Source: a virus. Taken from it: DNA of 20,078 nucleotides. The stretch lies in the UHGV virus genome UHGV-1836283; one strand, written 5' to 3'. Both the position numbers and the translations under genes were made by a program. The notes below the pieces were generated by a model. The model saw only the letters and a list, made by a program, of their open reading frames with translations, did not search any database and had not been told where the DNA came from. Below, piece after piece: positions 134 through 18,849 of the stretch. Each line of letters opens with the position of its first letter. Position 1 is the first letter of the stretch.

Positions 134-168
134 AATTCTCCCAAAGAATAACGTGCAAGCAGCAAAAT

Positions 169-186
169 ACGCCCCATAAGGGGCGT
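169..186. terminator. Bidirectional rho-independent terminator-like hairpin just downstream of tfa
   Basis: Perfect 7-bp GC-rich stem ACGCCCC/GGGGCGT with 4-nt loop. A-run before and T-rich run after on the plus strand; on the minus strand the stem is followed by UAUUUUG, 5 nt after the tfa stop. Confidence 0.6.
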
Positions 187-190
187 TTAT

Positions 191-1494: not shown

Positions 1495-1497
1495 GGA

Positions 1498-3546: not shown

Positions 3547-4091
3547 GCCTCCATCGCTTTATCAGGTTTGTCGGTGTTACTGCCCTGACCGTTCTCTCTG
3601 TGACGATGCCCGTTATAGGCAAGCCGCATCGCTGACATGGTGGTACCGCCGGAGTCGCACAGGTCTTTCACCTGTCCGGTCACTTCCAGGTCCATTTCAA
3701 AACGTGCTCTGGGCGCATTGCGAAACGTGATCGTTTTACCTGCACCGTCCACCACGATCCCCTCCCGGGTCAGCGTCACAGACTGCCCCTGATCGTCATA
3801 GACAGCCACCTCACCCGTCTGCAGCCCTTTCAGGCGGTAGCGCCGGTCCGACACCGTAACAACCACCGCATGAGAACGGTCGCCATCCGGAAACAACACC
3901 ACCGCTTCCGCACCGCTGTTTGCCCTTGCGGTAAAACCGTAGGGTTCAAGATGTTCAACCCCGGCTTTGGGTTCACCGGCAATCAGGGACACATCCACGG
4001 TCTGACATTTCGTGGCGGCACTGATGCTTTTCACCACTGCCCGCCCAATCAGGCCGAGGAGTTGTCGCTGCATGGCTTCAATCGTCCTCAT
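3543..4091 (-). CDS. Baseplate assembly protein V / central spike (Mu gp45-like)
   Basis: 182 aa; gpV-like N-terminal region; 4-nt overlap with the next gene. Confidence 0.8.
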   Translation of the reverse strand: MRTIEAMQRQLLGLIGRAVVKSISAATKCQTVDVSLIAGEPKAGVEHLEPYGFTARANSGAEAVVLFPDGDRSHAVVVTVSDRRYRLKGLQTGEVAVYDDQGQSVTLTREGIVVDGAGKTITFRNAPRARFEMDLEVTGQVKDLCDSGGTTMSAMRLAYNGHRHRENGQGSNTDKPDKAMEA

Positions 4092-5170: not shown

Positions 5171-6495
5171 TGCACTGGCACCTTCAGAGGGATCACCGGC
5201 ACAAAGCCGGGATGCGTAATGGCATTACGCCGGATAATGTCCGCGTCACGCGCCGCGTTATCAAACCAGGTCGCCGCCAGCACCAGCGCGGGTAAAACTT
5301 CATCCGGTGTGCGCTGAATGATCCGTGCAGACTGTTCAAGGCGCGTGTTGATATCCGCATTCAGATCTGCTTTCACCCGGCGCAGCGCCAGAAACAGCGC
5401 ATCGCTGGTTGTACGGGACAACTCCTTATCAATTGCCGTATTCAGTGTGTCGCGAATGTCAGTCAGTTCTTCCCACGTCGGCAGGTCAACCGTGTTTTTC
5501 ACCGCCGGTGCATTGTTCAGTGCCGGATGCGTGACGGAAGGCCAGCCAGTGCTCTGCGCGGGTGTTGTTGCCTGCCCCACTGCGGCATTCTGCATCACCG
5601 CGGAAGTTGTTGGCGCAGGCAATCGGGTGACGGCATACGCCGCTTCGCTGATTGCGGTCGTACGAAGGGTGCTGGCAACCACGTTACGCTGCTGCGTCGC
5701 CGTGGCGGTGGTTTTACTGTCCGTTTTCCAGACGCCGCGCGGTTGCAGATCGCTGCCGAGGCTGACACCGGAAAGCGTTTTGATCATGGTGACCAGGTCG
5801 CTGGCGTTACCATAAAGGCGTTTCCCGGTACGCCACATTTTCTGCACCTGCTCAACGAAATTTTTGCCTGACGATGGCGGCGGCAGAAGTACCGAGATAT
5901 CCCCCTGCAACAGCCTGGCGGCATCCGATACGGCAGAATCCACCACTTTCATCGCATCAGAAATATACCCAAGCATTGTGCCGGCATTACCGACGACGTC
6001 GTTCTGCACAAAATCTGCCACGCCATCGATACTGAAACCACTGAAACTGTCACTGATGCAGTCATCCAGTGCAGAACAGGATGACATCAGCGTCTGCGCC
6101 GTCGCCGCACCTGATGTGGGGTAAGAGAGTTCTCCCGCTTCGACAAACTTCAGGTCAAAGCGGACAATACGTCCTTCACTTTTCGATGTGCTGACCCGAA
6201 CTTCCCCGTCAACACAGACTTTCAGCTCACCGTAAGTCGGATGGACAAGCGTGCCGGGACCGGGTTTATTCAGCGCTTCAATCAGGCGATCGCGCTGGTC
6301 AAAGCAGTCATCTCCCACCACATAAGCTGTGATGGACGGGCGGAAAGTGACTTTTCCCAGATCTTCGGTATAGGGTTTGTCGCGGTTCGGATATTCGTGT
6401 GTTTCCACACGACGGCCGGTTCCCGCACTTTCTTCTTCAACCTTAAACGGCACACCTCGAAATGACGCGTCCTGAAGTCTGTCTTTCCACGTCAT
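5167..6495 (-). CDS. DNA circulation protein (Mu gp43 / N-like); start moved to the internal ATG at 6495
   Basis: N-terminus MTWKDRLQDASFRGVPF… from the ATG at 6495 is preceded by GGAG. The ORF-track start at 6537 would make the protein run through a terminator hairpin. Confidence 0.8.
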   Translation of the reverse strand: MTWKDRLQDASFRGVPFKVEEESAGTGRRVETHEYPNRDKPYTEDLGKVTFRPSITAYVVGDDCFDQRDRLIEALNKPGPGTLVHPTYGELKVCVDGEVRVSTSKSEGRIVRFDLKFVEAGELSYPTSGAATAQTLMSSCSALDDCISDSFSGFSIDGVADFVQNDVVGNAGTMLGYISDAMKVVDSAVSDAARLLQGDISVLLPPPSSGKNFVEQVQKMWRTGKRLYGNASDLVTMIKTLSGVSLGSDLQPRGVWKTDSKTTATATQQRNVVASTLRTTAISEAAYAVTRLPAPTTSAVMQNAAVGQATTPAQSTGWPSVTHPALNNAPAVKNTVDLPTWEELTDIRDTLNTAIDKELSRTTSDALFLALRRVKADLNADINTRLEQSARIIQRTPDEVLPALVLAATWFDNAARDADIIRRNAITHPGFVPVIPLKVPVQ

Positions 6496-6510
6496 ATAAA
6501 CTCCGTACAT

Positions 6511-6532
6511 AAAAAATCCCACCGGAGTGGGA
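6511..6532 (-). terminator. Intra-operon rho-independent terminator/attenuator between tape measure and gp43 genes
   Basis: Minus-strand RNA: stem TCCCAC/GTGGGA (loop UCCG, extendable by wobble pairs) followed by UUUUUUAU, 23 nt after the tape-measure stop. Confidence 0.5.
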
Positions 6533-6555
6533 CTCATTAACAGATTAATTTTTCA

Positions 6556-8391
6556 TTACCTGCCAAAGCGCGTATAGCCAACATCATGGCTGACATCAAA
6601 ACCGCTGGATCGCGTTTCCATAACCCGCATACCCGGAGGCGAATTCACAAAAGAGACCTTGATCTCACCATCAACTTTTGGCGCAGAAGCTTTGTTAATC
6701 ATGAAGGGATTTGGGCCTGTGGCACCGGAGGCGTTGTTTGACTGAGCCAGATCTACCGCCGGATAAGGTTTGTATCCCCGCGCCGGTATTCCCGTCCCAT
6801 AAGCATCATAAGCACCCGCGCCCCACTGCGCAGAGTTAATGGCATCGACCGTGTCACCGGAACTGTCGGTAAACCATTCAATAATCGGCTTCAGCTTATC
6901 CCACATATCCTGAAACCACTTAACAACCGGTCCCCAGTTATTGATCACCATCCCCAGCGGCGACCAGGCAAAAACCTTCTTCAGAAGTTCCCAGCCAGCC
7001 TCAAAATAAGGACTAATGGTTTCCCAGAGTTTCTTAAAATAAGGTCCGACAACATCCCAGTTAGTGATAATTAATCCCGCAGCCAGGGCTATCGCCGTCG
7101 CAATCATGCCAATCGGCGTCATCGACATGATCCTGCTGACAATACTGATGGCACCGCCAACGCCCATCAATCCCAGTTTCAGAATCGCAAGACCGGCAGC
7201 AAGCCCGACGACGCCGCGAATAACCCGGGGATTTTCATCCGCAAACTTCGTGAATTTCTCCCCCAACTCCCCCAGCCATTGCGTGATATTTTTGGCGTCA
7301 CCAGAAAATGCGCCGCCAATAGCCGCAAGGCCGTTAGTTGCGGTCCCCGTCATTGCCTCCCACAGGTTGGACAGCGTACCAAGCTGGGCCTGAACACGTT
7401 TATTCAGGCTGGCCTGTTTATTCATCTTCTGCTGGATCTGATCGTAGCCATCCTTTCCTTTATCGATTAGTGCATTGACCACCTGAAGGGTTTCGGCATC
7501 ATCACCAAATATTGCCTTAAGTACACCTGTTCGCTTAACGTCGGTCAGTTTTCGCAGCTTTGCCAGTTGCCTGAACATGTTATCAAGACCGCCAAAACTC
7601 CCTTTGCCGTCAGTAAAATCGAGCTGCACTCCGAGTTTCTGGCGGGCCATGACTTTATTGACGTCCCTGATTTTCTTAACGCTTAATCCGGACTGAATAA
7701 CTTTTCGCAGGGCATTACCTGCCGACTCCCCGTTCATCCCCATCTGATCCATCATGACGCTGATAGGGGCAAGGCTCTGTGCAGCCTGAAGACCGTCCTT
7801 ATTCACCATCTTCAGAACAGAACTGGTTTTAGTGAAGAAGGACAACATGTTGGTATCGTCAACGCCCAGATAAAACGCTTTCTGGATAGTGTCGAACAGC
7901 CCCATCATGTCTTCTGACGCCGTTCCGGTAGCATCCTGCATCTTTGCAGCAAACTCGGCTGCCGATTCCGGTGTTTTTTTCAGTTGTACCGCAAGATAAG
8001 CTGTCGCTTTACCCACACCACCCAGAATGTTTTCTGCTGGGATCCCCTGACGCACCAGCATCTGCATCATGTTCTGGAAATCAGCCGTTGTACCGGGTAG
8101 CTGGTTACCCAGGCCAATAGCCAGTTTATTGATGTCCTGAAAGCTCTTTCCAACCTCGCCGTTCGCATCCATCATGGCGACTTTCAGCCCGGTGGCGGCG
8201 TTTTCCTGATCGGCATAAGATTTCAGGGAAAGCGTCAGACCCGCTGCCAGTCCGCCACCAAGCGCCAGCCCACCCTGTGACGCTTCTTCCGCCTGGCGTT
8301 TAAATCCCCGGATTTTCTTTTGCATTTTCGACAGCGCCGGAGAAAGCCTGTCGACACCGGTGATCAACGCCTTAAGCTCAAATTCAGCCAT
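6556..8391 (-). CDS. Tail tape measure protein (Mu gp42-like)
   Basis: 611 aa; Ala/Gly-rich hydrophobic segments (GVVGLAAGLAILKLGLMGVGGAISIV) typical of tape measure proteins; located right after the chaperone pair. Confidence 0.85.
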   Translation of the reverse strand: MAEFELKALITGVDRLSPALSKMQKKIRGFKRQAEEASQGGLALGGGLAAGLTLSLKSYADQENAATGLKVAMMDANGEVGKSFQDINKLAIGLGNQLPGTTADFQNMMQMLVRQGIPAENILGGVGKATAYLAVQLKKTPESAAEFAAKMQDATGTASEDMMGLFDTIQKAFYLGVDDTNMLSFFTKTSSVLKMVNKDGLQAAQSLAPISVMMDQMGMNGESAGNALRKVIQSGLSVKKIRDVNKVMARQKLGVQLDFTDGKGSFGGLDNMFRQLAKLRKLTDVKRTGVLKAIFGDDAETLQVVNALIDKGKDGYDQIQQKMNKQASLNKRVQAQLGTLSNLWEAMTGTATNGLAAIGGAFSGDAKNITQWLGELGEKFTKFADENPRVIRGVVGLAAGLAILKLGLMGVGGAISIVSRIMSMTPIGMIATAIALAAGLIITNWDVVGPYFKKLWETISPYFEAGWELLKKVFAWSPLGMVINNWGPVVKWFQDMWDKLKPIIEWFTDSSGDTVDAINSAQWGAGAYDAYGTGIPARGYKPYPAVDLAQSNNASGATGPNPFMINKASAPKVDGEIKVSFVNSPPGMRVMETRSSGFDVSHDVGYTRFGR

Positions 8392-8566
8392 GTGTGCGTT
8401 TCTCCTGCTCTATCCTGTTTGCCTGACTGACCAGTAAGGGAATTTCACTGATCGGCATATTCAGCAATTCGAAAGGATTAATGCGCCAGTAACTGGCGCA
8501 GTCAAAGAAGCGATCAGTGAGGTATTCAGCCGTCAGGCCTGGAGGAAAAAACCGGCCACAAGCCAC
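8384..8566 (-). CDS. -1 frame extension of the tail assembly chaperone (gpT-like part of a G/GT-type fusion)
   Basis: 60-codon ORF in the -1 frame relative to 8533..8802, overlapping its 3' end and the tape-measure start by 8 nt; a slippery heptamer lies in the overlap. Confidence 0.6.
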   Translation of the reverse strand: MACGRFFPPGLTAEYLTDRFFDCASYWRINPFELLNMPISEIPLLVSQANRIEQEKRTHG

Positions 8567-8802
8567 GCCGCTGCATTCAGGTCTGCCGGAGACATCTGGT
8601 CGACAGAGCTTTGCGGCACTTTCGCCAGCCGCACGATGTATTTCGATACCACATGCGCCAGAAGTCTGACGGACTCATCCTGATTCATCTGGTAGGGATA
8701 TCCCAGCTCGCGGACATCTTTCCCGGTGGGCTCATCAAACTCCAGTACGGAGAGTGTCTCGCCATGAGCGGTAATCGGTTTCTTTAACTCAAGCTCTTTC
8801 AT
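8533..8802 (-). CDS. Tail assembly chaperone (Mu gp41-like)
   Basis: 89 aa acidic protein between tube and tape-measure genes; start overlaps the tube gene stop. Confidence 0.75.
   Translation of the reverse strand: MKELELKKPITAHGETLSVLEFDEPTGKDVRELGYPYQMNQDESVRLLAHVVSKYIVRLAKVPQSSVDQMSPADLNAAAWLVAGFFLQA
8545..8551 (-). other. Programmed -1 ribosomal frameshift slippery site U UUU UUC
   Basis: Minus-strand TTTTTTC in X XXY YYZ register of the chaperone frame (…GCC GGT TTT TTC…), 10 nt before its stop. A -1 shift gives …VAGFF-PPGLTAEYL…. Confidence 0.6.
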
Positions 8803-9158
8803 TACTGGTAATCCCCTTCTTCACCGTGGAACTCAAGATCAACCGTGCCTTCTTCGGCATTATGGTTCGCTTCGCCGTGCAGCCAGGCAGACGACAGTAC
8901 ATAGACCTGACCGTTCGCCAGCTCGGCAGTGATTGTCATCTCATCAGACGAGGTGATTTTGTTCACCGGAAAATTCTTCGGCACCTTGAAGGTCCCTTTG
9001 ACATAAGGCGCACGGTGAGTTTCCTTGCGGTCCACTGAACCGTCCAGGCCGATGATGTCATCATTGACCGTCCTGTTCATGGGCACCTCAATGCCGCCGG
9101 TCAGCGATAGCTGCTGACCGTCAATTTTGAAATAACAGGTTCCCCCGATACGGGCCAT
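8802..9158 (-). CDS. Tail tube protein (Mu gp40 / M-like)
   Basis: 118 aa; directly downstream of the sheath gene with start/stop overlap. Confidence 0.85.
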   Translation of the reverse strand: MARIGGTCYFKIDGQQLSLTGGIEVPMNRTVNDDIIGLDGSVDRKETHRAPYVKGTFKVPKNFPVNKITSSDEMTITAELANGQVYVLSSAWLHGEANHNAEEGTVDLEFHGEEGDYQ

Positions 9159-10654
9159 TATGCAGACTCCTCTGAATACTGAAGACGGAACTGGTTAACC
9201 ACGGCAAAGACACGCAACTGGTTAACATAGTCAGGCGGGAACAGCGTGTTCAGGCGGTTCGGATCGCTGGCATCACGCTCCACAACCAGGTACTGCTTAA
9301 ACAGTTCGTAGTTTTCCACGATCCCCGCACGCTCAAGCTGACGGTAGGTTGCCAGCAGTTCCCCTTTGATCACCGCCGGGGTGACAATCGCCTGACCGGG
9401 ACCAAAGCGGGTACCGTCACTGGCAAGCTTGTGACGCCCGTACTTACTGGTAATGACGGATTTCAGTTTGCGCAGTACATACGCGCTGGTATGCAGTGTC
9501 TCACTGTCGAGGTAGCTGTTATCCGCAACCCCGTAAGCGTTTTTCCTGTACGTGGTGACATCACGCTGAATGCGCAGTACCCCGCTTTCGACATACGCCG
9601 TTGCCACGCCATGAGACAGCAGGGTCTGTTGTTCGGTCATCGTGAACCGTTTCCCCTTCGGCGCAGGCAGCATACCCACCATCTCACCGGTCTGCGTGGG
9701 ACGTGCCGGATCGTTGCGGATAAACACCGCTGCGCGGGCGGTACGGCTGGCTGCCAGCTCGTCGGCAGGCGTCTGGGTCTCTTTTTCGTACCCCGCCAGG
9801 GTGATGTGCTGCTGGTTAAACTGGTCACCTGCGTTCACCAGTTCTGACAGTGTGCCGGCCTTTGCCGTATACACATGACCATACAGCTGACGCGCATAGC
9901 TCCAGCGACCGCTGGTATCGTTCATCTCGGTCACCAGCGTGTTAACAGAGGCCGTGTCGTTGAACGGCAGACCGATATAATCAAACGGCTCATCCGCCAT
10001 TGCAGCCACCGCGCCGGTGAGAACCGGAGCGCCCGTTCCGGCGGTCCCCGTCGCCACGGCAATCTGTACGCCCGCTGGCAGCACTTCGCCCCCACCGAAG
10101 CCGTAGTAATTGAGGCTGACAGGAATTTCATTCCCGCAAAGCCCCTTATGGCGAGCGGTCAATGTAACCACACCAGCCGAAGATGAGGCCGTAAACGGCA
10201 GGGCCGGAACGGCATTGATGGCATCTTTGATACTGCTGGCAATCGTCGCGACGTTATCGCCGTTGGTCACCGGTGCCTGCACGCGGGTACGTCCCACATA
10301 AACATTCACCGTGCCGGTTTCGGTTGCTGCCCCGGTCACCGTCAGCGTAACTGTTGCCGCCGCGCCTGTGGATTCAGGAACGGCAATCACATACAGCTCG
10401 CCAAACGGGTCGGTCTGGCGATAAGCCTCGACCATACGCGCCAGCTGACTTCCCGCACCACAAATCTGGCGTGCATAGTCTGCCGACGGCATCAGTACCA
10501 GACTGTTGGCAACAATCTCTGCACCGTTATTGGCATGACCAATCAGCAGCGATGCTCCGCTGTCCTGTGCAGTATTCGCCGCCTGGTTATCCATTTCCGC
10601 ATAAAACAACGGAACCAGCGTATTCGACGGAATGGTGTTAAAGCTTATCGTCAT
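9158..10654 (-). CDS. Contractile tail sheath protein (Mu gp39 / L-like)
   Basis: 498 aa; sheath-like sequence and conserved sheath-tube-chaperone-tape measure order. Confidence 0.9.
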   Translation of the reverse strand: MTISFNTIPSNTLVPLFYAEMDNQAANTAQDSGASLLIGHANNGAEIVANSLVLMPSADYARQICGAGSQLARMVEAYRQTDPFGELYVIAVPESTGAAATVTLTVTGAATETGTVNVYVGRTRVQAPVTNGDNVATIASSIKDAINAVPALPFTASSSAGVVTLTARHKGLCGNEIPVSLNYYGFGGGEVLPAGVQIAVATGTAGTGAPVLTGAVAAMADEPFDYIGLPFNDTASVNTLVTEMNDTSGRWSYARQLYGHVYTAKAGTLSELVNAGDQFNQQHITLAGYEKETQTPADELAASRTARAAVFIRNDPARPTQTGEMVGMLPAPKGKRFTMTEQQTLLSHGVATAYVESGVLRIQRDVTTYRKNAYGVADNSYLDSETLHTSAYVLRKLKSVITSKYGRHKLASDGTRFGPGQAIVTPAVIKGELLATYRQLERAGIVENYELFKQYLVVERDASDPNRLNTLFPPDYVNQLRVFAVVNQFRLQYSEESA

Positions 10655-10808
10655 CGGTATTCACCTTTTTATTCACGCGCCGGATATCACCCGCTGCTTC
10701 ACGGCGCAGCCAGTAGTTGTTCTCGTCAACATTTCGCCCTTCGGCGGGCAAAAGGTCGCCGCGGGCAGGGTCAGGCACTGACCGCCCTTTAACAGGTTTG
10801 ACAAACAT
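10638..10808 (-). CDS. Small hypothetical protein (56 aa), below the ORF-track size cut-off
   Basis: ATG at 10808 preceded by GAGGA at 5-nt spacing, 8 nt after the upstream gene stop; TAA at 10638-10640 overlaps the sheath start by 17 nt. Translation MFVKPVKGRSVPDPARGDLLPAEGRNVDENNYWLRREAAGDIRRVNKKVNTDDDKL. Confidence 0.45.
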   Translation of the reverse strand: MFVKPVKGRSVPDPARGDLLPAEGRNVDENNYWLRREAAGDIRRVNKKVNTDDDKL

Positions 10809-10816
10809 GAGGATCC

Positions 10817-11377
10817 TCAGGAAGGAAGGGTTATTTCGGTGTGATGTTCGATATCGCCGTCAGGCCCGTTACCGGGCTCGAGATAATCAACATCAATCGC
10901 CAGCGTTTGCAGTTCATCCAGACTGTTCAGATCATCCTGCTGGCGGGTATCGTCTTCAGTCAGCTCGCTGATGACCGAAAAATCGAACTGATAAATCAGC
11001 TCATGACGATTCAGATCCAGCAGCGTGCCGCCGTCATAGGTAATCGGGTTACCACACGCTTCCGGGTTCCAGCCCAGCAGAGCCTTAAAGAGCATCTGCC
11101 GGACATCGTCCACCACATCATACGAGGCAAACTGACCGCGCTCATCACGCCCGTTACTCAGTATGACAACCACGGAGAAGCCCTCTTTCAGCTCCTGCCA
11201 GTAGTCGGTCTGGCTTTTGTTTTCTCCCGGAGAGTCATCACCCGGTACCACATACGCCGCCGGGAGTCTCAGCTTTCCGACCTCCGGCAGATTTTTGAAC
11301 TGTGCCGCGCCTGCCACCCGGTTTTCAAAATACGGACAGCGGGCACGCAGTGCAGCAATAACGGGCGTCAGTTTCAT
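10817..11377 (-). CDS. Mu gp37-like virion protein (DUF1834-type)
   Basis: 186 aa; recognised family pattern and position upstream of the sheath gene. Confidence 0.65.
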   Translation of the reverse strand: MKLTPVIAALRARCPYFENRVAGAAQFKNLPEVGKLRLPAAYVVPGDDSPGENKSQTDYWQELKEGFSVVVILSNGRDERGQFASYDVVDDVRQMLFKALLGWNPEACGNPITYDGGTLLDLNRHELIYQFDFSVISELTEDDTRQQDDLNSLDELQTLAIDVDYLEPGNGPDGDIEHHTEITLPS

Positions 11378-11880
11378 CTGTGTCGTCGCTCCGGCTTCAG
11401 TGATTTACGCAATTCCCGCGCCAGAAAATAGCGTGTCCAGCTGCGGTTCTTTTCAAGAGTTTCCACCATGAAGTTATTACGTGGAGCCAGTCGCCAGCCG
11501 CTGCCACCGGATGCACCACGATGATGGCCGCGACGACGCTTTGCCCCTCGCCTCACGCCATAGAACAAAAAAGCCGGATAAAAATCACCGGTGATACGGC
11601 GGTTTCCCTCTCCATTACGCTGGTTAGGGGCTATACGTGCCATAAAACCAGGGCGATGTTTACTGGCTCTGGGTACCATGTAACCAATTGAGCGAGCCAG
11701 GCGTCCGGTCTGATAACCGGGGTTTTCACCCGGTGCCGACCGCGCACGGCGCATCACCAGCCGACGGGCATCACGCATATGACGCTGACCAATCGTGACA
11801 AACGCCCGCCGGACATGGGCGCGGTTAAAGCGCATCTCCGCGGGCTGCTGAAAATCAACGTGCAAAAAGGAAGTCGTCAT
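11374..11880 (-). CDS. Virion morphogenesis / tail completion protein (HK97 gp10-like)
   Basis: 168 aa, very basic C-terminus; sits between head closure and tail genes. Confidence 0.6.
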   Translation of the reverse strand: MTTSFLHVDFQQPAEMRFNRAHVRRAFVTIGQRHMRDARRLVMRRARSAPGENPGYQTGRLARSIGYMVPRASKHRPGFMARIAPNQRNGEGNRRITGDFYPAFLFYGVRRGAKRRRGHHRGASGGSGWRLAPRNNFMVETLEKNRSWTRYFLARELRKSLKPERRHR

Positions 11881-12265
11881 TGTTGCCTCCGTGACTCTGC
11901 CTACATTCGCCCAGCTCCGTACACTCCAGCAGCAGAAAGCGCCGCGCTCCGTTCAGATCGCGCTGACGTTTCACCCGGTACACACTGTCACCGCAGACCA
12001 CCTCATAATCAGCGGTGATCCCCCGGCGGTAACGAATGGTGATGTAATGGGTGATGGCGTCTCCGGTCTGCGCGGTTTCCTGCCAGGTGGTGGCACTGGT
12101 CTGGATAACCTTCGCCCATGCCCGGAACGCAACCGGGTATTGAGGCTCCACGCCAAAGTTATCCGCGGGCATATCCACCCGCTGGCGGATCAGGACGCGT
12201 TTATTCAGTTCGCCGGGGTCCGGCAGAATGTAGGTTGCGCTGGTCTGCGCCTGACGAATTTTCAT
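11855..12265 (-). CDS. Head closure / head-tail adaptor protein
   Basis: 136 aa; family-like pattern (…AWAKVIQTSATTWQETAQTGDAITHYITIRYR…RFLLLECTE); follows the connector gene. Confidence 0.7.
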   Translation of the reverse strand: MKIRQAQTSATYILPDPGELNKRVLIRQRVDMPADNFGVEPQYPVAFRAWAKVIQTSATTWQETAQTGDAITHYITIRYRRGITADYEVVCGDSVYRVKRQRDLNGARRFLLLECTELGECRQSHGGNNDDFLFAR

Positions 12266-12585
12266 AGTGGTATAAGGCGATAAGGAACAACCAACCAGTT
12301 AAAACTCATTGGCAACTCCATTTTCTCAACGTCTGTAACCGTTGAGCGGTTTTCGTAGAAATGGCTGACAAGTAGCAGAAGCGCCAGCTTCACATCATCA
12401 GATATCACAAGCCCATCAGGATCATCCGCAGGCCTGTCATCTGCGGTTGCATACAACTTACGGTTAAGGAAGTTTTCCGTACGACTCTGAGCGGCCTTAC
12501 CAAGCAGTTCAAGCAACTCATCTTCATCAGAGAAATCATCATCCAGACGGAGCTGAAGCTTAATCTCTTCCATTTTTAACAGCAT
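12262..12585 (-). CDS. Head-tail connector (gp6-like); start moved to ATG at 12585
   Basis: MLLKMEEIKLQLRLDDDFSDEDELLELL… matches the gp6-like connector family. AGGAGG lies 4 nt upstream of the ATG at 12585; the ORF-track start at 12630 runs through a hairpin and A-run. Confidence 0.7.
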   Translation of the reverse strand: MLLKMEEIKLQLRLDDDFSDEDELLELLGKAAQSRTENFLNRKLYATADDRPADDPDGLVISDDVKLALLLLVSHFYENRSTVTDVEKMELPMSFNWLVVPYRLIPL

Positions 12586-12595
12586 AAAACCTCCT

Positions 12596-12637
12596 GTGCC
12601 CGCCAGAACGCGGGCACAAAAAAACCGCATTACGCGG
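12596..12637 (-). promoter_or_regulatory. Hairpin pair after the major capsid gene: weak terminator plus strong stem abutting the next RBS
   Basis: Minus-strand RNA: CCGC-GUAAU-GCGG + U7, then 8-bp stem GUGCCCGC/GCGGGCAC, then AGGAGG-UUUU-AUG of the connector gene. Confidence 0.45.
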
Positions 12638-12663
12638 CGTGCTGTATTACGTAAAAAGACTAA

Positions 12664-13893
12664 TCAACCACCAACGCTACCTTTCCCCACCAGCGCTTTA
12701 ATGGCAGAGGTGTCTTCCAGGATACAGTCAAAACGATGGAAGGCCAGAAAACCGGTCTGATCATATTCCGCGTAACGCTCAACCAGACGTTTAAGAATCA
12801 TGTATCGCACACGACGGATAATGAAGCGATCAAAGTCACCACAGAACATGAATTTTTTACCCGCCCCGATATCATCAATTTCCTGATCAATGACATACGG
12901 TACATTCAACACTGAAGCAGGTGCCACACCAACAATATCCGGCAACCATAAAGGGCGTCCCTGACCGTCTTCCATCTCACTGATCAGTTTCAGCGTATTA
13001 TCGTTAAACGCCAGGCGGAATTTCGGCCCGCGACGATATGCAGGATCAATGCTGTGTTTCAGAGCCAGAATTTCCTGCCACTTCACCGTATTTGCCGCGG
13101 CAGTCTGTGTTGTGCCGGTCACAGATGCGACCAGCCCTTTGGGTTGTTTAGGCGTACCAGCACCAGTTCCCTGAATCAGATAACGGGCTTCACCACGACC
13201 AATACGTTCAGCAATACGACGGGCAAGATAAGCTTCCATATCGATCGCGCTGTCCTGCAGCAACTCATTAGACACACGAATGATTTTCGATGTCATTTTG
13301 AGCGCCCCAAGACTTCCCATACCGAAATCGGTGTCTTCTTCACCGGCTTCTTCATTTTCGCCCAGCAGAACACCAACTTCGGAAGTACCATCAGCTGTTG
13401 CCCACTCCATAGTGCGACCGTCAGAAGTGGTAAGAATCTGCGCCACACTGGCGATGCCACCGTAGGACTTCATCTTCTCAACAACTTTCGCCAGGAATGT
13501 TTCTGGTACGGTATATCCGCCCTTTTCATCCTGAGCTACGCCCTGGGCACGAAGTTCACGCAACGCCTTTCGTTCTTCTGATGTCAGCTCACTGGCACCG
13601 TGACGCATCCACTTATCAAAAACCTGAGCTCGTTTCTCATCCTGTTGCGGATTGTTTTCCGGATCAAGATTCTGACGCTGCTCTTCCTCATTGCTTTCAA
13701 TGTACGCCTGATCCTGACGACGCAGTTCTTCTTCGCGTGCAATTCGTTCATCAAGCGCTTCCAGTTCGGATTTTGCTTTGTTCCACTCAGTGCGCTGCTC
13801 TTCCGTCCATGCGTTATCACCAATTTTTTCATTCAGGGCACGCATGTCAGTTGCGATAGTATTACGTTTCTGTTTCAGTTCATGCAGTTTCAT
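12664..13893 (-). CDS. Major capsid protein, HK97 family
   Basis: 409 aa; charged coiled-coil N-terminal region (delta-domain-like) and HK97-type body; preceded by AGGAA RBS. Confidence 0.9.
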   Translation of the reverse strand: MKLHELKQKRNTIATDMRALNEKIGDNAWTEEQRTEWNKAKSELEALDERIAREEELRRQDQAYIESNEEEQRQNLDPENNPQQDEKRAQVFDKWMRHGASELTSEERKALRELRAQGVAQDEKGGYTVPETFLAKVVEKMKSYGGIASVAQILTTSDGRTMEWATADGTSEVGVLLGENEEAGEEDTDFGMGSLGALKMTSKIIRVSNELLQDSAIDMEAYLARRIAERIGRGEARYLIQGTGAGTPKQPKGLVASVTGTTQTAAANTVKWQEILALKHSIDPAYRRGPKFRLAFNDNTLKLISEMEDGQGRPLWLPDIVGVAPASVLNVPYVIDQEIDDIGAGKKFMFCGDFDRFIIRRVRYMILKRLVERYAEYDQTGFLAFHRFDCILEDTSAIKALVGKGSVGG

Positions 13894-13903
13894 GATGTTT
13901 CCT

Positions 13904-14506
13904 TTACGCGTTAAGAAGGGTCAGGACGCGCTCACGCGCCATACGTTGATTAATGGCTTTCTGTAGCGCGCCGCTGTTGCGCGCCTCCTGCCATGCTTTC
14001 ATGGAGCGAACAGCCGAGTCAGCCTCCTGATAGGCAGGATATGTCACAGGACTGACATCCAGCAGACGGGAAAAGCGGGTTATCTCGCGAATAACAACCC
14101 CGTCCTCATCCTGATACCACTCCTCGCCGTCACGGGCGACACGGAAAGCAAAAGATGACTGGTTAATATCTCCACGTTGCATCGGGGCCAGCACCAGATC
14201 ACGAATGGTCTGTGTCTCCGGAGCCTGGATGTCATAGCGCAATCCGCGCTCATCAACTGAAAGATTCAGCGTGCCTGCTGCACTACGCCCAAGAATAAAA
14301 TTAGGATCGTGGTTAAACAGTGCGCGTACATCATCACCAAGCACATCGTCAAAAGCGCCGGGCCGGATGATTTCGCGGAATGAACCAAATATCAGCTCAG
14401 AACGACAGTCAAACACCGATCCATAACCGATAATGTGCGCAGGGTTATCGTCATGCCGCTCAGCACGCACCTCACCGCTGTAACAACGGATTTCACGGTC
14501 ATTCAT
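13904..14506 (-). CDS. Prohead protease, HK97 family; start moved to ATG at 14506
   Basis: HK97-family protease sequence (…AHIIGYGSVFD…). ATG at 14506 (MNDREIR…) has a GAGGGA RBS and overlaps the portal stop (ATGAATGA); the ORF-track start at 14563 lacks an RBS. Confidence 0.85.
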   Translation of the reverse strand: MNDREIRCYSGEVRAERHDDNPAHIIGYGSVFDCRSELIFGSFREIIRPGAFDDVLGDDVRALFNHDPNFILGRSAAGTLNLSVDERGLRYDIQAPETQTIRDLVLAPMQRGDINQSSFAFRVARDGEEWYQDEDGVVIREITRFSRLLDVSPVTYPAYQEADSAVRSMKAWQEARNSGALQKAINQRMARERVLTLLNA

Positions 14507-15725
14507 TGGTTTTTCCCTCATCTTTTTTTGGGGGCTTAAAATCTCCTGCCGGGTTAGCAGCATTCACGCTTACCAGCATCTCATCCAGCCCTTCAACCGG
14601 ATTCATATCCTCGAATGCGCGGGCCTCATTACGGCTCATCCATCCATCGGTAATAGCGAAGTGATAGAATTGCGCGCGCTCCTGCGGAGTTCCGCGTAAA
14701 AGCCCCGTCAGATTGAACCTGACGTAATACCCGGCGGCTAACTCAGCGCGGGTAAACAAGCGACGGTTAAGCTCCTGCTCCCAGTTCGTCACCCACGGCA
14801 TCATCGTGTAGCGGACAAACTGAATCGCCTGCGCAGAAATATTGGAGAAGGTGGCTTTTTCGAGGTCATTAATCATGTGCGCAGGAATATTGAAAATACC
14901 GGCAATCATTGAACGGTTCAGTTTCATCATGTCAATGATCTGAGCGTCAACTGGCGACACAGTCAGTGCCTTGTAATCCAGATCGGCTGGCAGCAGCATG
15001 GTTTTGTTTTCCTGGCTGCGTAACGCCTGCGATGCCTTCTGCCACTGATCTTTAAGCCAGCCCCAGCTGTCCTTATTGAGTCCGCTTTTAACGGATACTA
15101 TCCCCGCCGGACGGGCATTACCGCTGAAGAAGCTTTCTGTGTATTTCTGACCGCTCATCCCCATGCCTATTGTTTCGGCATGTTGCATAATCGGACTCAG
15201 CCCCATCTTCTGATTATTACCCAGCGCACGGATGTGGATCATATCGTCGGGGCTGATCGCAAACGCCCCATATTCGTTGTACAAACCGTAGGTGTATCGG
15301 CCACCAGTATTCATCAGCGTCGTTTCCCACGGCATACAGCAATCCAGGGATATGACTTCACCGCGACGATTACGTTTCACCCAGGTATACCCATTCCCCC
15401 AGCCAAGGATGTGACGTTGCTTCAGTTCGCGCCATTTGTAACTGGTTTGCCAGGTATTGGGCTCATCATGAACCAGATAAAACGCCGGATGATCGCGTGC
15501 GGGCTCAACCTTCCCATTGTGCCTGCGCATAACATGCAACGGCATCTGGGCAAGGCTGGAAGACAGGACATAGATACAGGAATACACCGCAGCCAGTTTC
15601 ATCGCAGTTTCAGGACTGACATAAACGTCTGCCCGGAACAGCCCATCAGTATCAACGGCATCCCCGGTTATCGGGGTGGAAGGATTCTCCAGTGATTTAC
15701 TTCTGAACAGAGCATCAAGCAGCAC
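14499..15725 (-). CDS. Portal protein, HK97 family
   Basis: 408 aa; recognised portal family; the start codon at 15725 is GTG. Confidence 0.9.
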   Translation of the reverse strand: MLLDALFRSKSLENPSTPITGDAVDTDGLFRADVYVSPETAMKLAAVYSCIYVLSSSLAQMPLHVMRRHNGKVEPARDHPAFYLVHDEPNTWQTSYKWRELKQRHILGWGNGYTWVKRNRRGEVISLDCCMPWETTLMNTGGRYTYGLYNEYGAFAISPDDMIHIRALGNNQKMGLSPIMQHAETIGMGMSGQKYTESFFSGNARPAGIVSVKSGLNKDSWGWLKDQWQKASQALRSQENKTMLLPADLDYKALTVSPVDAQIIDMMKLNRSMIAGIFNIPAHMINDLEKATFSNISAQAIQFVRYTMMPWVTNWEQELNRRLFTRAELAAGYYVRFNLTGLLRGTPQERAQFYHFAITDGWMSRNEARAFEDMNPVEGLDEMLVSVNAANPAGDFKPPKKDEGKTNE

Positions 15726-15876
15726 GCGTCCCCCTTCTGGCCATAGCCAGTGCGCCCACCAGCAGTAAACCGCCGGACAGCATCAGAGCCGGAGCCATAC
15801 CAAACTGCAGGTAAAACCCGCACGTAAGCAGGCCAAAACCAGCCAACCCGATAACATCAGCAATTAGTGATTTCAT
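15715..15876 (-). CDS. Small predicted two-helix membrane protein (53 aa) between terminase large subunit and portal
   Basis: ATG overlaps the terminase stop (ATGA); stop overlaps the portal start. Translation [53 protein letters not shown]: two hydrophobic stretches, basic C-terminus. No strong RBS. Confidence 0.4.
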
Positions 15877-17606
15877 AGAATTAAGAGAACATCGTCCGGA
15901 TCAAGAGATGAGAGGAAATCGTCGGGTTCTTTGAGCATTGCCCGACCGATCGCCATAATCAGTGCAACCGCACCATCGATTTTGTTTTCCGCCTGCTCCT
16001 TGACAGGCTTCACCACATCATCGTTACCCGGAATGGTTTTGCCGACCACGTTGCCGATACACCAGGTCATGATGGGATTGCCGTCATGATGAAAGCGCCC
16101 CGATTCAATCGCCGCTTCCAGCTCTTTCATCGGATCGGACATGTTGGTGTAGTTCTGAATGATGGTGATGGGGTTCAGGTCTTCATCAGCAAGGTCATGC
16201 GACAGCCCGGTCGCCCCGAAGGGGTCGATGGGTGACTCACTGACCGGGCTGATTTTGTTCGCCGCTTTGGCCTCCTCGAGGATGTAGCGATAATCCACCT
16301 CCGCACCAGCGGTAACAGTCAGAACGCCCATTTCCACCCATTTCTGAAAGCGTTCGGCTGTCCGGCGATCTTCATTTTTCTCGACGCTGTACACCGTGTC
16401 ATACGGTACCCAGAAACGCGGGGCCACACTGTAGTAATGCGTTTTACCGTCAATCTCGCGGGTATAAAGTCGCGCCATGCTGTTCATATCCAGCTTACGC
16501 GCCAGGTCAAAGGCCAGAATGCACGGCTGCCCCTCGAACTGCTCAAGGGTCAGTGATTTATCCTCGCAGCTCTGCCAGCTCACCAGGTTGAAATACGCCG
16601 AACGCGCCGACACCCAGATATTGAGGTGTTTTGTTTTAAAGACGTTTGCCAGACGGGCGTTATTTTTCGCACGCTGCTGCTGACTTAACAAAAATTCGCG
16701 ATAAACCGACACGCCAATATTCGGGTTGGCTTTTTCCAGCACCTGCGGGTCGGTCCAGTCATCGCCTTCGTCAACGGTATAGATGATCCCGAACAGTTCA
16801 TCGTTGGGTACCGAACCGTTGAGCATCTCGATAACTTCCCGCCGCTTGTCGTAGCACGGCCCCTCAATGTTGTACCCGGCGGTGGTGATGGCCCACATCA
16901 GTGGCTGACGTCGCGCCCCCATCCCGGTAAGCATCGTGGTATAAAGCGCATCGGTGGCGTGCTCGTGATATTCATCCACCACCGCACAGTGGGGTGATGA
17001 ACCATCACCGGGGTTACCGATCAGCGGTTCAAACCGCGCGCCATCCTCCGGACGGTTCATGTTTGAGGCGTTAACCTCAATCCCGAACGCTTCCGTCAGC
17101 ATGGGTGTGCGTTTACACATCAGTCGCGCCGGGCGAAAGACTTCCCACGCCTGTTTCTCTGTCGTGGCACCGGAATACACTTCCGCGCCAAACTCGTTAT
17201 CACAGGCAAAACAATACAGGGCGACACCGGCAGAGATTGCCGATTTGCCGTTCTTACGGGGGATTTCGGTATACACCTCCCGGAAGCGGCGCAGCCGGGT
17301 ACCTTTATTGACCCAGCCAAACGCACAGCAGATCACAAAGAGCTGCCACGGCTCCAGCGTGATGGGCATCCGTTTGAATGCCCACTCACCCTTGGTATGC
17401 GGCAACAGCTGAATAAATTTGGCGGCCCGTTCAGCCAGGTCCTTGTCGAAGCGGTAACGAAACGACTTACTTTTTTCCGCCATCAGGTCATCAAGATGGC
17501 GCTGGCAGGCCTGAATCACAAACTGGCAGGCCACAATCTTTCCGCGCACGACATCACGGGCATACTGATTGGCTGCATTTACGTTGGGGTAAGATTTCCG
17601 GCTCAT
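15873..17606 (-). CDS. Terminase large subunit
   Basis: 577 aa; Walker A-like motif EIPRKNGKS near the N-terminus; size and position after the small subunit. Confidence 0.9.
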
Positions 17607-17619
17607 GATTCGATGATTT

Positions 17620-18105
17620 TCAGATTGTCAGAAACGGGTTAGTGGCTTTCTTCTTCCCCGCCAGGCCAATCAGACGCTGGCGGCTGCTGGGGTCGAGTCC
17701 GAGCATTGCCCCCGTGCTGCTCATCTCGGACTCCTGTTCTTTTTTGGCGGTCAGCTCCGGATTTTTGACCATGCCGCCCATTGCACCGGTGATGGTGTTG
17801 CCCTGTCTGGCAATATTTTTCACGGCACGTCGCCAGAATTCATAGGCCACACACCACCGCTCAAGTACCGCCAGGTCAGTCACGCACAGCAGGCCCTGAC
17901 CGCAGAGTTCTTTGGTTGTCAGTTGCCACATGATCGTGGCGAGAGGGAGATCTTCTTCAGCGAACCACTCCGGTGGCTCAACACCTTTGATGGGCGTAAA
18001 AACAGGTTCATCTTTATTCAGGGCTCGCTTGCCGGGGTTTCCGGCCAGCGCCTTGCGCGCCGTTGGCTTGGGGCGACGCCCGGAACGCCCCGCCGTTCCA
18101 GCCAT
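17620..18105 (-). CDS. Terminase small subunit, P27 family; start most likely ATG at 18105
   Basis: P27-type N-terminus [27 protein letters not shown]; AGGAG lies 9 nt upstream of the ATG at 18105. The ORF-track start at 18114 is a GTG with no RBS. Confidence 0.85.
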
Positions 18106-18144
18106 ATGCGGCACTCCTGGTTAAATTTCATTTTTCGCGGGTAT

Positions 18145-18204
18145 AAAAAAACGATGGGGCGGGCAGTCCGGAAGACGTCAGGTCACAGGGATTTGACCCG
18201 CCCC
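18145..18204 (-). promoter_or_regulatory. GC-rich dyad with U-tract between HNH and terminase genes: candidate cos/packaging site or terminator
   Basis: 8-bp inverted repeat GGGGCGGG (18156-18163) / CCCGCCCC (18197-18204) around a 33-nt loop containing a nested GGTCA/TGACC dyad. On the minus strand it is followed by AUCG + U7. Confidence 0.4.
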
Positions 18205-18230
18205 TCCCCTCAGACAGTTGAGAATTATTA

Positions 18231-18581
18231 TCACTTTAACCGTTCACGGGCCGTCTTCGCCTTATGACACGGCCAGCACAGACTCTGCAGATTACTGTCA
18301 GCATCAGTGCCGCCATGCGCTTTAGGGATGATGTGGTCAACAGTTTTCGCCTCACGCACCACACCAGAACGCAGACATAACTGACACAGGCCTTTGTCAC
18401 GCTTCAGGACACGCGCGCGGATACTGTCCCACTTCGAACCGTAGCCGCGCTGATGACGGGATTGTCCAGGTTTGTATTGCTTCCAGCCTTCGCTTTTGTG
18501 GCTTTCGCAATAGCCTGACGGGTCAGTGGTGGTATTACGGCAACCTCGAGCACGGCAGGCTTTCGGGATTCGTGGCGGCAT
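18231..18581 (-). CDS. HNH endonuclease (terminase-associated type)
   Basis: 116 aa; Cys-rich N-terminus and HNH motif …DHIIPKAHGGTDADSNLQSLCWPCHKAK…; GGAGA RBS 9 nt upstream; immediately upstream of terS. Confidence 0.85.
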   Translation of the reverse strand: MPPRIPKACRARGCRNTTTDPSGYCESHKSEGWKQYKPGQSRHQRGYGSKWDSIRARVLKRDKGLCQLCLRSGVVREAKTVDHIIPKAHGGTDADSNLQSLCWPCHKAKTARERLK

Positions 18582-18665
18582 ATGTACTAATCTCCGATTT
18601 ATCCAAATTTAACTGCCATAATGCCGACATTCTCTGCCATTGTTGGCTCCGTTTATCCGTTAAAA

Positions 18666-18735
18666 GGGATATCAGTTAAGTTATCCCGTGTAGGGTATAA
18701 ACCATTATCAAAGCCACTCTGTAGGGAGTGGCTTT
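18666..18735. promoter_or_regulatory. Two terminator-like hairpins in the non-coding stretch between IS2 and the HNH gene
   Basis: Hairpin A: GGGATA(18666-18671)/TATCCC(18682-18687), followed by UUUUAA on the minus strand. Hairpin B: AAGCCACTC(18711-18719)/GAGTGGCTT(18726-18734), followed by TTTGT on the plus strand. Confidence 0.35.
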
Positions 18736-18758
18736 TGTAATGACAATAAAAAGCCCCG

Positions 18759-18799: not shown

Positions 18800-18849
18800 A
18801 ATAAGTGATAGTCTTAATACTAGTTTTTAGACTAGTCATTGGAGAACAG

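Follow-up and report, generated by a model that had tools for sequence, protein, structure and literature searches.

A conserved family of predicted two-helix membrane proteins encoded immediately upstream of HK97-type portals

Gene Organization at the Terminase-Portal Junction

The DNA analyzed here, referred to throughout as the window, is a 20,078-nucleotide stretch of the virus genome UHGV-1836283 whose packaging and head genes lie on the minus strand (Table 1). Its closest relative is 99.97% identical over window positions 120-18758. The PDB relatives of the encoded portal are the HK97 portal entries 8cez/8fql, and the GTG start assigned to the portal gene in the window is the start used by PGAP. 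A sequence-only reading of this DNA had proposed that a 53-codon open reading frame (ORF), for which no strand was given, spans the gap between the gene for the large terminase subunit (terL) and the portal gene while overlapping both. This arrangement was found as described, on the minus strand, and the small ORF was shown to be a gene belonging to an SfV-like prophage of E. coli.

Table 1. Coordinates of the small ORF, its junctions and the neighboring genes in the window (TM, transmembrane; AF2, AlphaFold2).
Feature	Coordinates	Strand	Evidence and remarks
HK97-fold major capsid protein	12664..13893	minus	Pfam Phage_capsid
S78 prohead protease	13904..14563	minus	Pfam Peptidase_S78
Portal, HK97-family, PF04860	14499..15725	minus	Pfam E 2.9e-98; GTG start 11 nt inside the small ORF
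Small ORF, 53 codons	15715..15876	minus	Gene for a predicted two-TM-helix hairpin; PHROG 7105; WP_000838374.1
AGAAGGGGG, codons R47-R48-G49 and portal Shine-Dalgarno	15730..15738	minus	4 nt before the portal GTG
Predicted TM helix 2, residues ~30-46	15739..15789	minus	Hydropathy, AF2 helix 27-51, conservation (73 members)
Predicted TM helix 1, residues ~8-23	15808..15855	minus	Hydropathy, AF2 helix 2-25, conservation (73 members)
ATGA overlap of small-ORF start and terL stop	15873..15876	minus	No Shine-Dalgarno upstream; sequence inspection and diverse relatives
terL C-terminal tail, mosaic joint	15873..15951	minus	End point of DNA similarity, drop in protein identity
terL, large terminase subunit	15873..17606	minus	Pfam TerL_ATPase and TerL_nuclease
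P27-family small terminase subunit	17620..18114	minus	Pfam Terminase_4
HNH endonuclease, packaging module	18231..18581	minus	Pfam HNH

The start of the small ORF is preceded by TTCTCTTAATTCT-ATG, in which no Shine-Dalgarno (SD) sequence is present, and diverse relatives of the ORF likewise lack an SD and begin on or close to the stop codon of terL. Judging from the ATGA overlap and the missing SD, the small ORF is most likely translated by termination-reinitiation after terL. At the opposite end, the last 11 nt of the small ORF are shared with the portal gene from its GTG start. Just before this overlap, R47 and R48 are encoded by AGA-AGG, a tandem pair of rare Arg codons, and SD-like purine-rich motifs for the portal gene are also located within the final small-ORF codons of distant relatives. 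The protein terminates in the basic tail ARRGTRAA. Because the codons of this tail double as the portal SD, its basic character is at least partly a by-product, and the basic tails of such proteins should be interpreted with the ribosome-binding site of the downstream gene in mind.

Conservation and Selection

The small ORF is confirmed as a real, selected protein-coding gene. It is intact, with equal length and the same overlaps, in 164/164 related loci (46 distinct DNAs), so that the frameshifts or stops that could have disqualified it among its relatives are absent and the 53-codon frame is kept. Comparison of synonymous and non-synonymous changes, likewise raised by the sequence-only reading, revealed purifying selection, with a dN/dS of 0.245 in the small-ORF frame vs. 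0.39-2.97 in the five other frames. Third codon positions are the most variable (45/47), and second positions vary at 18/47. Upstream of its GTG, the portal frame is neutral (dN/dS 0.94). The concern that GC-rich DNA had produced a hydrophobic ORF by chance does not apply, as GC across the small ORF is just 0.48-0.56, within the range of terL and the portal gene.

Annotation Status and Breadth of the Family

The description of this ORF as unannotated holds for the GenBank and RefSeq records of Shigella phage SfV, from which it is omitted, but not for E. coli genomes, in which PGAP annotates it as WP_000838374.1. The SfV copy, located between orf2 and orf3, is 92% identical (49/53 residues) with equal length and overlaps. 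Using hmmscan, residues 1-52 of the small protein were matched to positions 1-52 of the 52-position PHROG 7105 profile (E 9.2e-22). The PHROG 7105 members, WP_000838374.1, and the SfV ORF thus belong to the same family as the small protein, a family with no described function. When clustered at 50% identity, the proteins recovered by a family profile search fall into 128 clusters, nearly all of 48-60 aa and matched from end to end; family proteins range from 47 to 67 aa, with a median of 52 aa.

Scans of the small protein against Pfam, NCBIfam, and PADLOC gave no match, and when 73 family members were scanned against Pfam, the only matches were scattered, sub-threshold ones to unrelated TM families. 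Literature on ymfR, sb3, SfV, transmembrane genes upstream of the portal, and small membrane proteins encoded at the terminase-portal junction yielded nothing on function, and passages in the SPP1 and Microbacterium phage papers describe insertions that are unrelated to the small ORF. The small protein is already catalogued as hypothetical, and its family is large but uncharacterized. The main value of the locus is the family-wide pattern. The family comprises at least 128 clusters and is fixed at one site, translationally coupled to the portal gene, from Enterobacteriaceae to Chlorobiaceae, a taxonomic breadth taken from source names and four context look-ups.

Relation to YmfR and Sb3

The same slot, directly behind terL and with an overlap into the portal gene, is occupied in the e14 element of E. 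coli K-12 and in Salmonella phage ST64B by the genes for YmfR and Sb3 (PHROG 502), which are 60-aa two-TM hairpins. As with the small ORF, the last codons of these genes contain the portal SD, and the proteins have in common with the small protein the spacing GxxGx6Gx[YW]L. The small protein matches PHROG 502 weakly (hmmscan, E 1e-4), while the family profile, searched against a small database, picks up Sb3 and YmfR (E 2-4e-4); one protein, L251, is matched by both profiles. BLASTP of the small protein against Sb3 detected no similarity, and hhalign of the small-protein family against the YmfR/Sb3 family gave a probability of 13%. The two groups also differ in their tails, as that of YmfR/Sb3 is acidic/polar and ends in GGGK/GGE whereas that of the small protein is basic, and YmfR/Sb3 accompany a portal only 27% identical to that of the window. 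On this profile and motif evidence, YmfR and Sb3 are probable remote relatives of the small protein in the same position, and membership in its family is not claimed.

Protein Structure and Topology

Hydropathy and AF2 bear out the proposal of two hydrophobic helices followed by a basic tail. The protein has a GRAVY of 1.13, with its hydrophobic stretches at residues ~8-23 and 30-46, and AF2 predicts a helical hairpin (helices 2-25 and 27-51) with a pLDDT of 86.9. In family members (n=73), K+R averages 2.3 in the C-terminal tail vs. 0.3 in the loop, a charge distribution from which a two-TM hairpin with both termini cytoplasmic (N-in/C-in) is predicted. Across 73 diverse members, the conserved residues are D7, G13, G20, Y22, L23, G26, and G35. 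Helix 1 carries the near-invariant G13 and G20, followed by Y22 and L23, and helix 2 carries the invariant G35.

A Foldseek search of the PDB with the AF2 hairpin returned nothing at E ≤ 0.001. A sequence search of the PDB with the family profile gave a single chance match, CD9 (E 3.5), and no related phage chain. The fold of a 53-aa hairpin is too simple to reveal function by structural comparison.

Linkage to the Portal Gene

The family is encoded immediately upstream of HK97-type portals, nearly always overlapping the portal start, and is co-inherited with the portal. Among 253 loci surveyed, 236 of the 240 family matches are portal-adjacent; no adjacent portal ORF was identified for the remaining 4/240, whose loci are probably truncated or disrupted. 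Members from Halomonas, TARA, JGI, and Chlorobiaceae sources all adjoin a PF04860 portal, with overlaps of 4, 8, or 11 nt. Chlorobiaceae (L167/L168) are the only lineage in which the small gene is apart from terL, and in these loci five genes lie between the two while the portal overlap is still present. The pairing of small gene and portal also persists while the protease type varies between S78, S49, and ClpP, and the family occurs with both contractile-tail (SfV-like) and siphovirus-like modules.

The small gene accompanies 26/37 portal clusters, comprising all 24 of those scoring at least 459 bits against the portal profile and 2/13 of the more distant ones. In the 11/37 portal clusters without the small gene, terL is coupled directly to the portal gene, an arrangement also seen in HK97 itself. 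Identity between small proteins correlates with that of their portals at a rho of 0.93 vs. 0.73 for the terL body. Discordant pairs follow the same pattern, as small proteins are 71% identical if the portals match and terL differs, and 30% identical in the reverse case.

Mosaicism at the locus points in the same direction. DNA similarity to ST64B, SfI, SfII, and SfIV ends at window position ~15951. Compared with the ST64B type, terL identity is 80-100% per 25-residue block but falls to 44-50% in the last blocks; the portals, as given above, are 27% identical. The position of this mosaic joint indicates that in ST64B-type phages the small ORF is exchanged as one block with the terL tail and the portal gene.

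A Candidate Portal Partner at the Inner Membrane

Our leading reading, to which we assign a probability of only about 0.3, is that the small protein acts late, at the inner membrane, as a partner of the portal during head assembly or packaging, in a role resembling that of gp40 of T4. Since the small gene has no promoter, terminator, or SD of its own, it is most likely expressed only late, from the packaging/head operon and coupled to terL. Ribosomes finishing the small ORF would pass to the portal start, whose SD sits in the final codons, and such a handover would tie the output of the small protein to that of terL and the portal. The protein would then enter the inner membrane and may oligomerize through glycine faces formed by G13/G20 on helix 1 and G35 on helix 2. 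The resulting membrane hairpin could tether or chaperone the new portal or the portal-terminase complex, nucleating prohead assembly or packaging.

Gene 40 of T4 is not known to be adjacent to gene 20, and the T4 portal belongs to a portal family other than that of the PF04860 portal of the window. For HK97-like phages, no description is known of proheads that initiate at a membrane. The likeness of the small protein to gp40 is functional and hypothetical only, and no sequence relationship is expected. In T4, prohead assembly begins from the membrane-attached portal gp20, which depends on the viral chaperone gp40 (PMC9958956). This phage-encoded link of portal assembly to the inner membrane is the only established precedent for the mechanism proposed here.

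Since many HK97-like phages couple terL to the portal gene without the small gene, a role as portal partner would have to be accessory or clade-specific rather than universal. Against portal binding, the cytoplasmic segments are tiny, at ~7 residues on each end. Conservation is strongest in the intramembrane glycines, a pattern that self-association or a membrane target would explain no less well than portal binding. Co-inheritance with the portal could also be hitchhiking, given that the small gene is flanked by the terL tail and the portal gene, which must stay matched, and holds the portal SD.

It is possible, though we hold this wider proposal only tentatively, that the hairpin family together with YmfR/Sb3 constitutes a membrane component of the HK97-type head-assembly/packaging module that anchors or chaperones the portal or the portal-terminase motor at the inner membrane. 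If true, membrane-initiated prohead assembly, documented so far only for T4, would be widespread among temperate HK97-like phages. Head assembly outside T4, generally regarded as cytoplasmic, would thereby gain a membrane step, and the K-12 orphan YmfR would acquire a role.

Alternative Roles in the Membrane

It is considered unlikely that the small protein instead acts in superinfection exclusion or anti-defense, or as a modulator of host membrane proteins, with the hairpin binding a host DNA-entry receptor, protease, or insertase and thereby blocking phage DNA or disarming a host function. Small inner-membrane phage proteins with such roles occur in structural operons, as exemplified by HK97 gp15 and T4 Imm, and like the gp15-type morons and exclusion proteins, the small protein would be a small inner-membrane protein encoded among virion genes. 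In addition, the category assigned to PHROG 502 (YmfR/Sb3) is "moron, auxiliary metabolic gene and host takeover," and YmfR has stayed intact while the e14 element of E. coli K-12 that carries it has decayed. The PHROG category merely mirrors the label "membrane protein," however, and no published report of YmfR expression or phenotype was found. PADLOC likewise matched 0 families at E ≤ 1 for the small protein and YmfR.

The proposal of a moron-type accessory gene, made when the ORF was first noticed, was not sustained. Morons are marked by a promoter and terminator of their own, a deviating base composition, and variation among close relatives, whereas none of these hallmarks is seen for the small gene. 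A consensus scan of 3.3 kb detected 3 promoter-like sites vs. 2.6 expected and 3 terminator-like sites vs. 3.4 expected, and thus nothing above shuffled sequence; none of these sites is placed to drive or end the small ORF. There is also no GC deviation and no presence/absence polymorphism, and the portal-adjacent position is fixed. An accessory gene would not be expected at one exact portal-adjacent site from Enterobacteriaceae to Chlorobiaceae. The fixed position across these families and marine metagenomes instead argues for a long-standing component of the module rather than a recent moron. The sequence-only reading had also raised holin-like, toxin, and exclusion roles, for none of which positive support emerged.

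Rather unlikely as well is a late membrane effector resembling a holin, antiholin, or pinholin, whose glycine-zipper hairpin would build up in the inner membrane as the late genes are expressed, alter membrane potential or lysis timing, and tie lysis to the progress of head assembly. The layout of two TM helices, predicted N-in/C-in topology, and basic cytoplasmic C-terminal tail is that of a class II holin. Class II holins and pinholins such as S21 of phage 21 resemble the small protein in their small size, their pair of TM helices rich in glycine, their N-in/C-in topology, as predicted here, and their charged C-terminal tail, but known class II holins are longer than 53 aa. Conserved intramembrane glycines are typical of oligomerizing or pore-forming helices, and 3/73 family members have weak sub-threshold matches to Phage_holin_3_6, although no holin family is significant in Pfam for the small protein or the 73 members. 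The gene is never found in a lysis cassette and is portal-adjacent in all contexts examined. Moreover, the closest relative carries a separate complete cassette (lambda-type holin, GH24 endolysin, and Rz) ~3-4.3 kb upstream, and the Halomonas locus carries its own holin. No dual-start motif is present, as the small protein has a single N-terminal Met and its next Met is residue 27. A holin function also leaves the strict portal adjacency across phyla unexplained.

The coupling to the portal and the co-inheritance with it fit a virion-associated ejection or pilot protein, in which the hairpin would join the portal vertex during assembly and, on infection, exit with the DNA and help form a conduit through the inner membrane. 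Occurrence in both contractile-tail and siphovirus-like contexts suggests a head-side rather than a tail-side role, as such a protein would have. We nevertheless judge this quite improbable, since a hairpin with a GRAVY of 1.13 would need a chaperone for solubility before incorporation, solved phage structures contain no related chain, and no proteomic report was found.

Readings Without a Separate Functional Peptide

Even less credible is the proposition that only translation through the terL-portal junction matters and that the peptide is a functionless spacer for translational coupling. Coupling junctions at both ends, the portal SD inside the ORF, and the direct coupling of terL to the portal gene in phages without the small ORF are all in its favor. 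However, selection acts on the amino acids (dN/dS 0.245), G13, G20, G35, D7, Y22, and L23 hardly vary among over 70 divergent clusters that span phyla, and a spacer would not preserve both the two-TM hairpin and its fixed length (median 52 aa). A pure coupling spacer was rejected on this residue-level conservation.

Almost no credence is given to an N-terminal extension of the portal, whether by slippage at AGA-AGG-GGG to give a membrane-anchored portal isoform or by an upstream portal start as in the SfV record. The tandem rare Arg codons before the overlap would suit a frameshift, one database entry, P0153, has the form of a hairpin fused to a portal, and the SfV record begins the portal 51 nt upstream, inside the small ORF; but overlaps of 1, 4, 8, and 11 nt give different relative frames, such that the needed shift is not conserved, P0153 is most simply an indel or assembly error, and the upstream GTG of SfV is absent from the window. 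Both the frameshift fusion and the SfV upstream start were rejected, given that the relative frames vary and that, ahead of its GTG, the portal frame evolves neutrally. For annotation, the practical point is that the SfV reference record misses the small gene and appears to begin the portal too early.

A selected gene between terL and portal

The small ORF between terL and the portal gene is a selected gene that encodes a two-helix hydrophobic hairpin, is locked to the portal gene and is inherited together with it. It lies on the minus strand and is much as a reading of the sequence alone had described it, with the ATGA at the terL stop and with its final 11 nt shared with the portal gene, which starts at GTG. 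In the surrounding minus-strand module, Pfam models identify an HNH endonuclease, a P27-type small terminase, terL, a PF04860 portal, an S78 prohead protease and an HK97-fold capsid protein.

Coordinates of the small ORF, its neighbors and the insertion sequence in the window
Feature	Coordinates	Strand	Remarks
Small ORF	15715..15876	-	ORF, 53 codons
terL	15873..17606	-	Pfam; stop shares bases with the small-ORF ATG (ATGA)
Portal (HK97-family, PF04860)	14499..15725	-	Pfam; GTG start
IS OrfA	18805-19215	+	IS3-family
IS OrfB	19173-20078	+	IS3-family; reaches window end

A 147-nt spacing from terL stop to portal start recurs at 164 of 165 related loci drawn from viral contigs and assemblies, ST64B being the exception, and at all 164 equally spaced loci (46 distinct DNA sequences) the 53-codon ORF is intact, keeps both overlaps, and is free of frameshifts and stops. 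By the pooled Nei-Gojobori method, applied to small-ORF codons outside the overlaps, dN/dS is 0.245; the corresponding values are 0.14 for the final 150 codons of terL, 0.09 for the opening 150 of the portal gene, and 0.39-2.97 for the five alternative frames of the small ORF. Variable columns number 33, 18, and 45 of 47 at codon positions 1, 2, and 3, respectively. The suspicion that GC-rich DNA had produced a hydrophobic ORF by chance fails, as the DNA of the ORF is not GC-rich (0.48-0.56). Given intact reading frames and ordinary GC content, the small ORF is a real gene whose peptide is under selection.

The two hydrophobic helices proposed earlier are borne out by hydropathy, which places hydrophobic stretches at residues about 8-23 and 30-46 (GRAVY 1.13), and by an AlphaFold2 model built from the family alignment of 73 sequences, which forms a hairpin of helices 2-25 and 27-51 (mean pLDDT 86.9). 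A PDB sequence search of solved structures returned no chain related to the hairpin family, and a fold search was uninformative.

Translation signals and the basic tail

No Shine-Dalgarno sequence precedes the small-ORF ATG (upstream sequence …TTCTCTTAATTCT-ATG), and initiation would most simply occur by termination-reinitiation at the ATGA junction. The portal Shine-Dalgarno sequence, AGAAGGGGG, 4 nt ahead of the GTG, is formed by the codons AGA AGG GGG for R47-R48-G49 of the small protein (window 15730-15738, minus strand). In distant relatives, the small gene likewise begins at the preceding stop or close to it and lacks a Shine-Dalgarno sequence of its own; its final codons, which encode R/K/G-rich tails, contain a purine-rich Shine-Dalgarno sequence (loci L003-L251), and its overlap with the portal start is 1, 4, 8, or 11 nt. 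Two constraints thus act on the basic tail, positive-inside topology and the ribosome-binding site of the next gene, and this dual coding can imitate a 'positive-inside' signal.

Family breadth and probable relation to YmfR and Sb3

The small protein is already catalogued, both as a hypothetical protein and as a PHROG family, and is uncharacterized. Its earlier description as unannotated holds for the SfV records and not for E. coli, where PGAP lists it in the prophage of strain WP4-S18-ESBL-09 as hypothetical protein WP_000838374.1. Its whole length aligns with PHROG 7105 (function unknown, E 9e-22), there is a weak match to PHROG 502 ('membrane protein', E 1e-4), and Pfam, NCBIfam, and PADLOC give no match. 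Close homologs (at least 64% identity) occur in E. coli, Citrobacter, and metagenomes, and a family profile run against 1.84 billion cluster representatives recovered 128 clusters at E <= 1e-3, nearly all of 48-60 aa and aligned end to end. The cultured carriers are SfV, SKA5, Edwardsiella EPP-1, several Klebsiella phages, Halomonas QHHSV-1, and two 'Synechococcus' phages, in which the matched stretch, where annotated as its own gene, is a 'hypothetical protein'. Among 73 diverse members, G35 is invariant (73/73), G13 and G20 are each found in 72, G26 in 68, and D7 in 62 with E in six more; Y22 and L23 also stand out. Mean K+R counts in these members are 1.1 in the N-terminal seven residues, 0.3 in the six-residue loop, and 2.3 in the C-tail, a distribution that predicts an N-in/C-in hairpin.

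In ST64B, a 60-aa 'membrane protein', Sb3, occupies the slot of the hairpin, and in e14 of E. coli K-12, YmfR (97% identical to Sb3) has remnants of terL and of the portal gene on either side. BLASTP detected no direct similarity between Sb3 and the window protein, and hhalign joined the two families weakly (probability 13%). The hairpin-family HMM matches Sb3 and YmfR at E 2-4e-4 in a small database, one protein (L251) is matched by both profiles, and the spacing GxxGx6Gx[YW]L is common to both families. By these comparisons, YmfR and Sb3 are positional equivalents of the hairpin and probably its remote relatives, short of proven membership in one family. In the W3110 e14 region (L173 1492-3229), terL and portal are truncated pseudogenes and the 60-aa ymfR between them is intact. 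Among the papers searched, none gives a function for ymfR or sb3. New to the catalogued family are its strict pairing with the portal in different phyla and its probable link to YmfR.

Portal adjacency and co-inheritance

Of all the results, genomic context is the most telling. In every distant member examined, whether drawn from a Halomonas genome, TARA ocean metagenomes, a JGI metagenome, or a Chlorobiaceae MAG, the small gene directly precedes a PF04860 portal gene and overlaps its start. At the Chlorobiaceae loci (the MAG, L167, and a Logan contig, L168), five unrelated genes stand between terL and the small gene, and the portal overlap is still 11 nt. These five ORFs (about 2325-4400 in L167) have no recorded Pfam hit, and the prohead protease there is of the NfeD-N/S49 type, not S78. 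Across loci the prohead protease varies (S78, S49/NfeD-like, ClpP) and the hairpin-portal pair is constant. Of the 240 family hits surveyed across 253 loci, 236 are portal-adjacent; the other four fall in loci with no adjacent portal ORF identified, which are probably truncated or disrupted.

The hairpin gene is found in 26 of 37 portal clusters, including all 24 whose score on the portal profile reaches 459 bits. Distant portals (33-41% identity) make up the other 11 clusters, and wherever the upstream terL was included, it abuts or overlaps the portal gene directly. The hairpin gene is therefore an insertion into an otherwise directly coupled terL-portal junction, specific to a clade rather than universal.

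Comparison with ST64B places a mosaic joint inside terL (window 15873-15951, minus strand). Until the last ~20 residues, terL keeps 80-100% identity in each 25-residue block, a similarity common also to SfI, SfII, and SfIV; beyond the joint, the small gene and the portal (27% identity) change along with the terL tail. The joint position is consistent with the terL C-terminal tail acting as a portal-matching element, an idea drawn from what is known of other terminases. Over 125 distinct terL/hairpin/portal triples, the identity of the hairpin tracks that of the portal (Spearman 0.93) more closely than that of the terL body (0.73). Hairpin identity is 30% where terL is at least 88% and portal at most 70% identical, and 71% where the relation is reversed. 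This signal could be partly hitchhiking, since the two elements flanking the hairpin gene, the terL tail and the portal, must stay matched.

Possible functions of the hairpin

Tentatively, at a probability of about 0.3, the hairpin may be a membrane partner of the portal in prohead initiation or packaging. It is probably expressed only late, with its output tied to terL and portal through coupling, and is predicted to insert N-in/C-in into the inner membrane and to self-associate via its glycine faces; there it would serve as a tether or chaperone for the portal or for the portal-terminase complex. The analogy is with T4, whose membrane-bound gp20 initiator depends on gp40 (PMC9958956). Against this proposal, the cytoplasmic segments of the hairpin are very short, its conservation is concentrated inside the membrane, and many HK97-like phages lack the gene.

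The sequence-only reading had envisaged a moron-type accessory membrane protein, such as a toxin, superinfection-exclusion, or holin-like protein. A membrane protein is still predicted; the hallmarks of a moron are absent, as promoter and terminator signals do not exceed those of shuffles, GC is as in the flanks, and presence does not vary across 164 loci. A role in exclusion or host-membrane modulation is doubtful, and no PADLOC defence-component model matches the small protein. A late membrane-active or lysis-timing role is unlikely: the predicted topology fits a holin, but unlike holin genes, the hairpin gene is never set in a lysis cassette, it has no dual start and no holin model match, and the closest relative carries a separate cassette of holin, endolysin, and Rz. 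That the hairpin is a virion ejection protein is improbable. A mere coupling spacer is very improbable, leaving the residues conserved across phyla unexplained, and a hairpin-portal fusion is the least credible reading, the conserved frameshift form being rejected because the overlaps set the portal in differing relative frames. The probability left over goes to something else. One representative from the profile search, P0153 (131 aa), reads as the hairpin joined in frame to a portal N-terminus, most likely through an indel or assembly error.

Source of the window, the SfV record and the insertion sequence

The window represents an SfV-like E. coli prophage. Window 120..18758 is 99.97% identical to the prophage at dusA in strain WP4-S18-ESBL-09, and across the terL-portal junction an 801-bp segment (window 15400-16200) matches Shigella phage SfV at 96% identity. 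The junction is present in about 260 of 5,426 complete E. coli genomes. In the SfV record (NC_003444.1), the small ORF (2289-2450) is without annotation, and the portal CDS (2392-3666) starts at a GTG 51 nt inside it, a codon that the window lacks. The portal frame upstream of the window's GTG is neutral (dN/dS 0.94), which argues against the upstream SfV start; given this and the missing GTG, the annotated start of the SfV portal is probably 17 codons too early.

An IS3-family insertion sequence, which we take to resemble IS2, lies at window 18805-20078 (plus strand), directly upstream of the HNH/terS/terL operon. The match to the reference prophage ends at window 18758, at which point the reference carries its lysis cassette. 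The insertion may separate the late operon from its promoter, leaving the prophage defective. Outside the part matching the window, the reference prophage (L003 17044-17196) has another hypothetical ORF, of 50 aa, overlapping the end of an Rz-like lysis gene.
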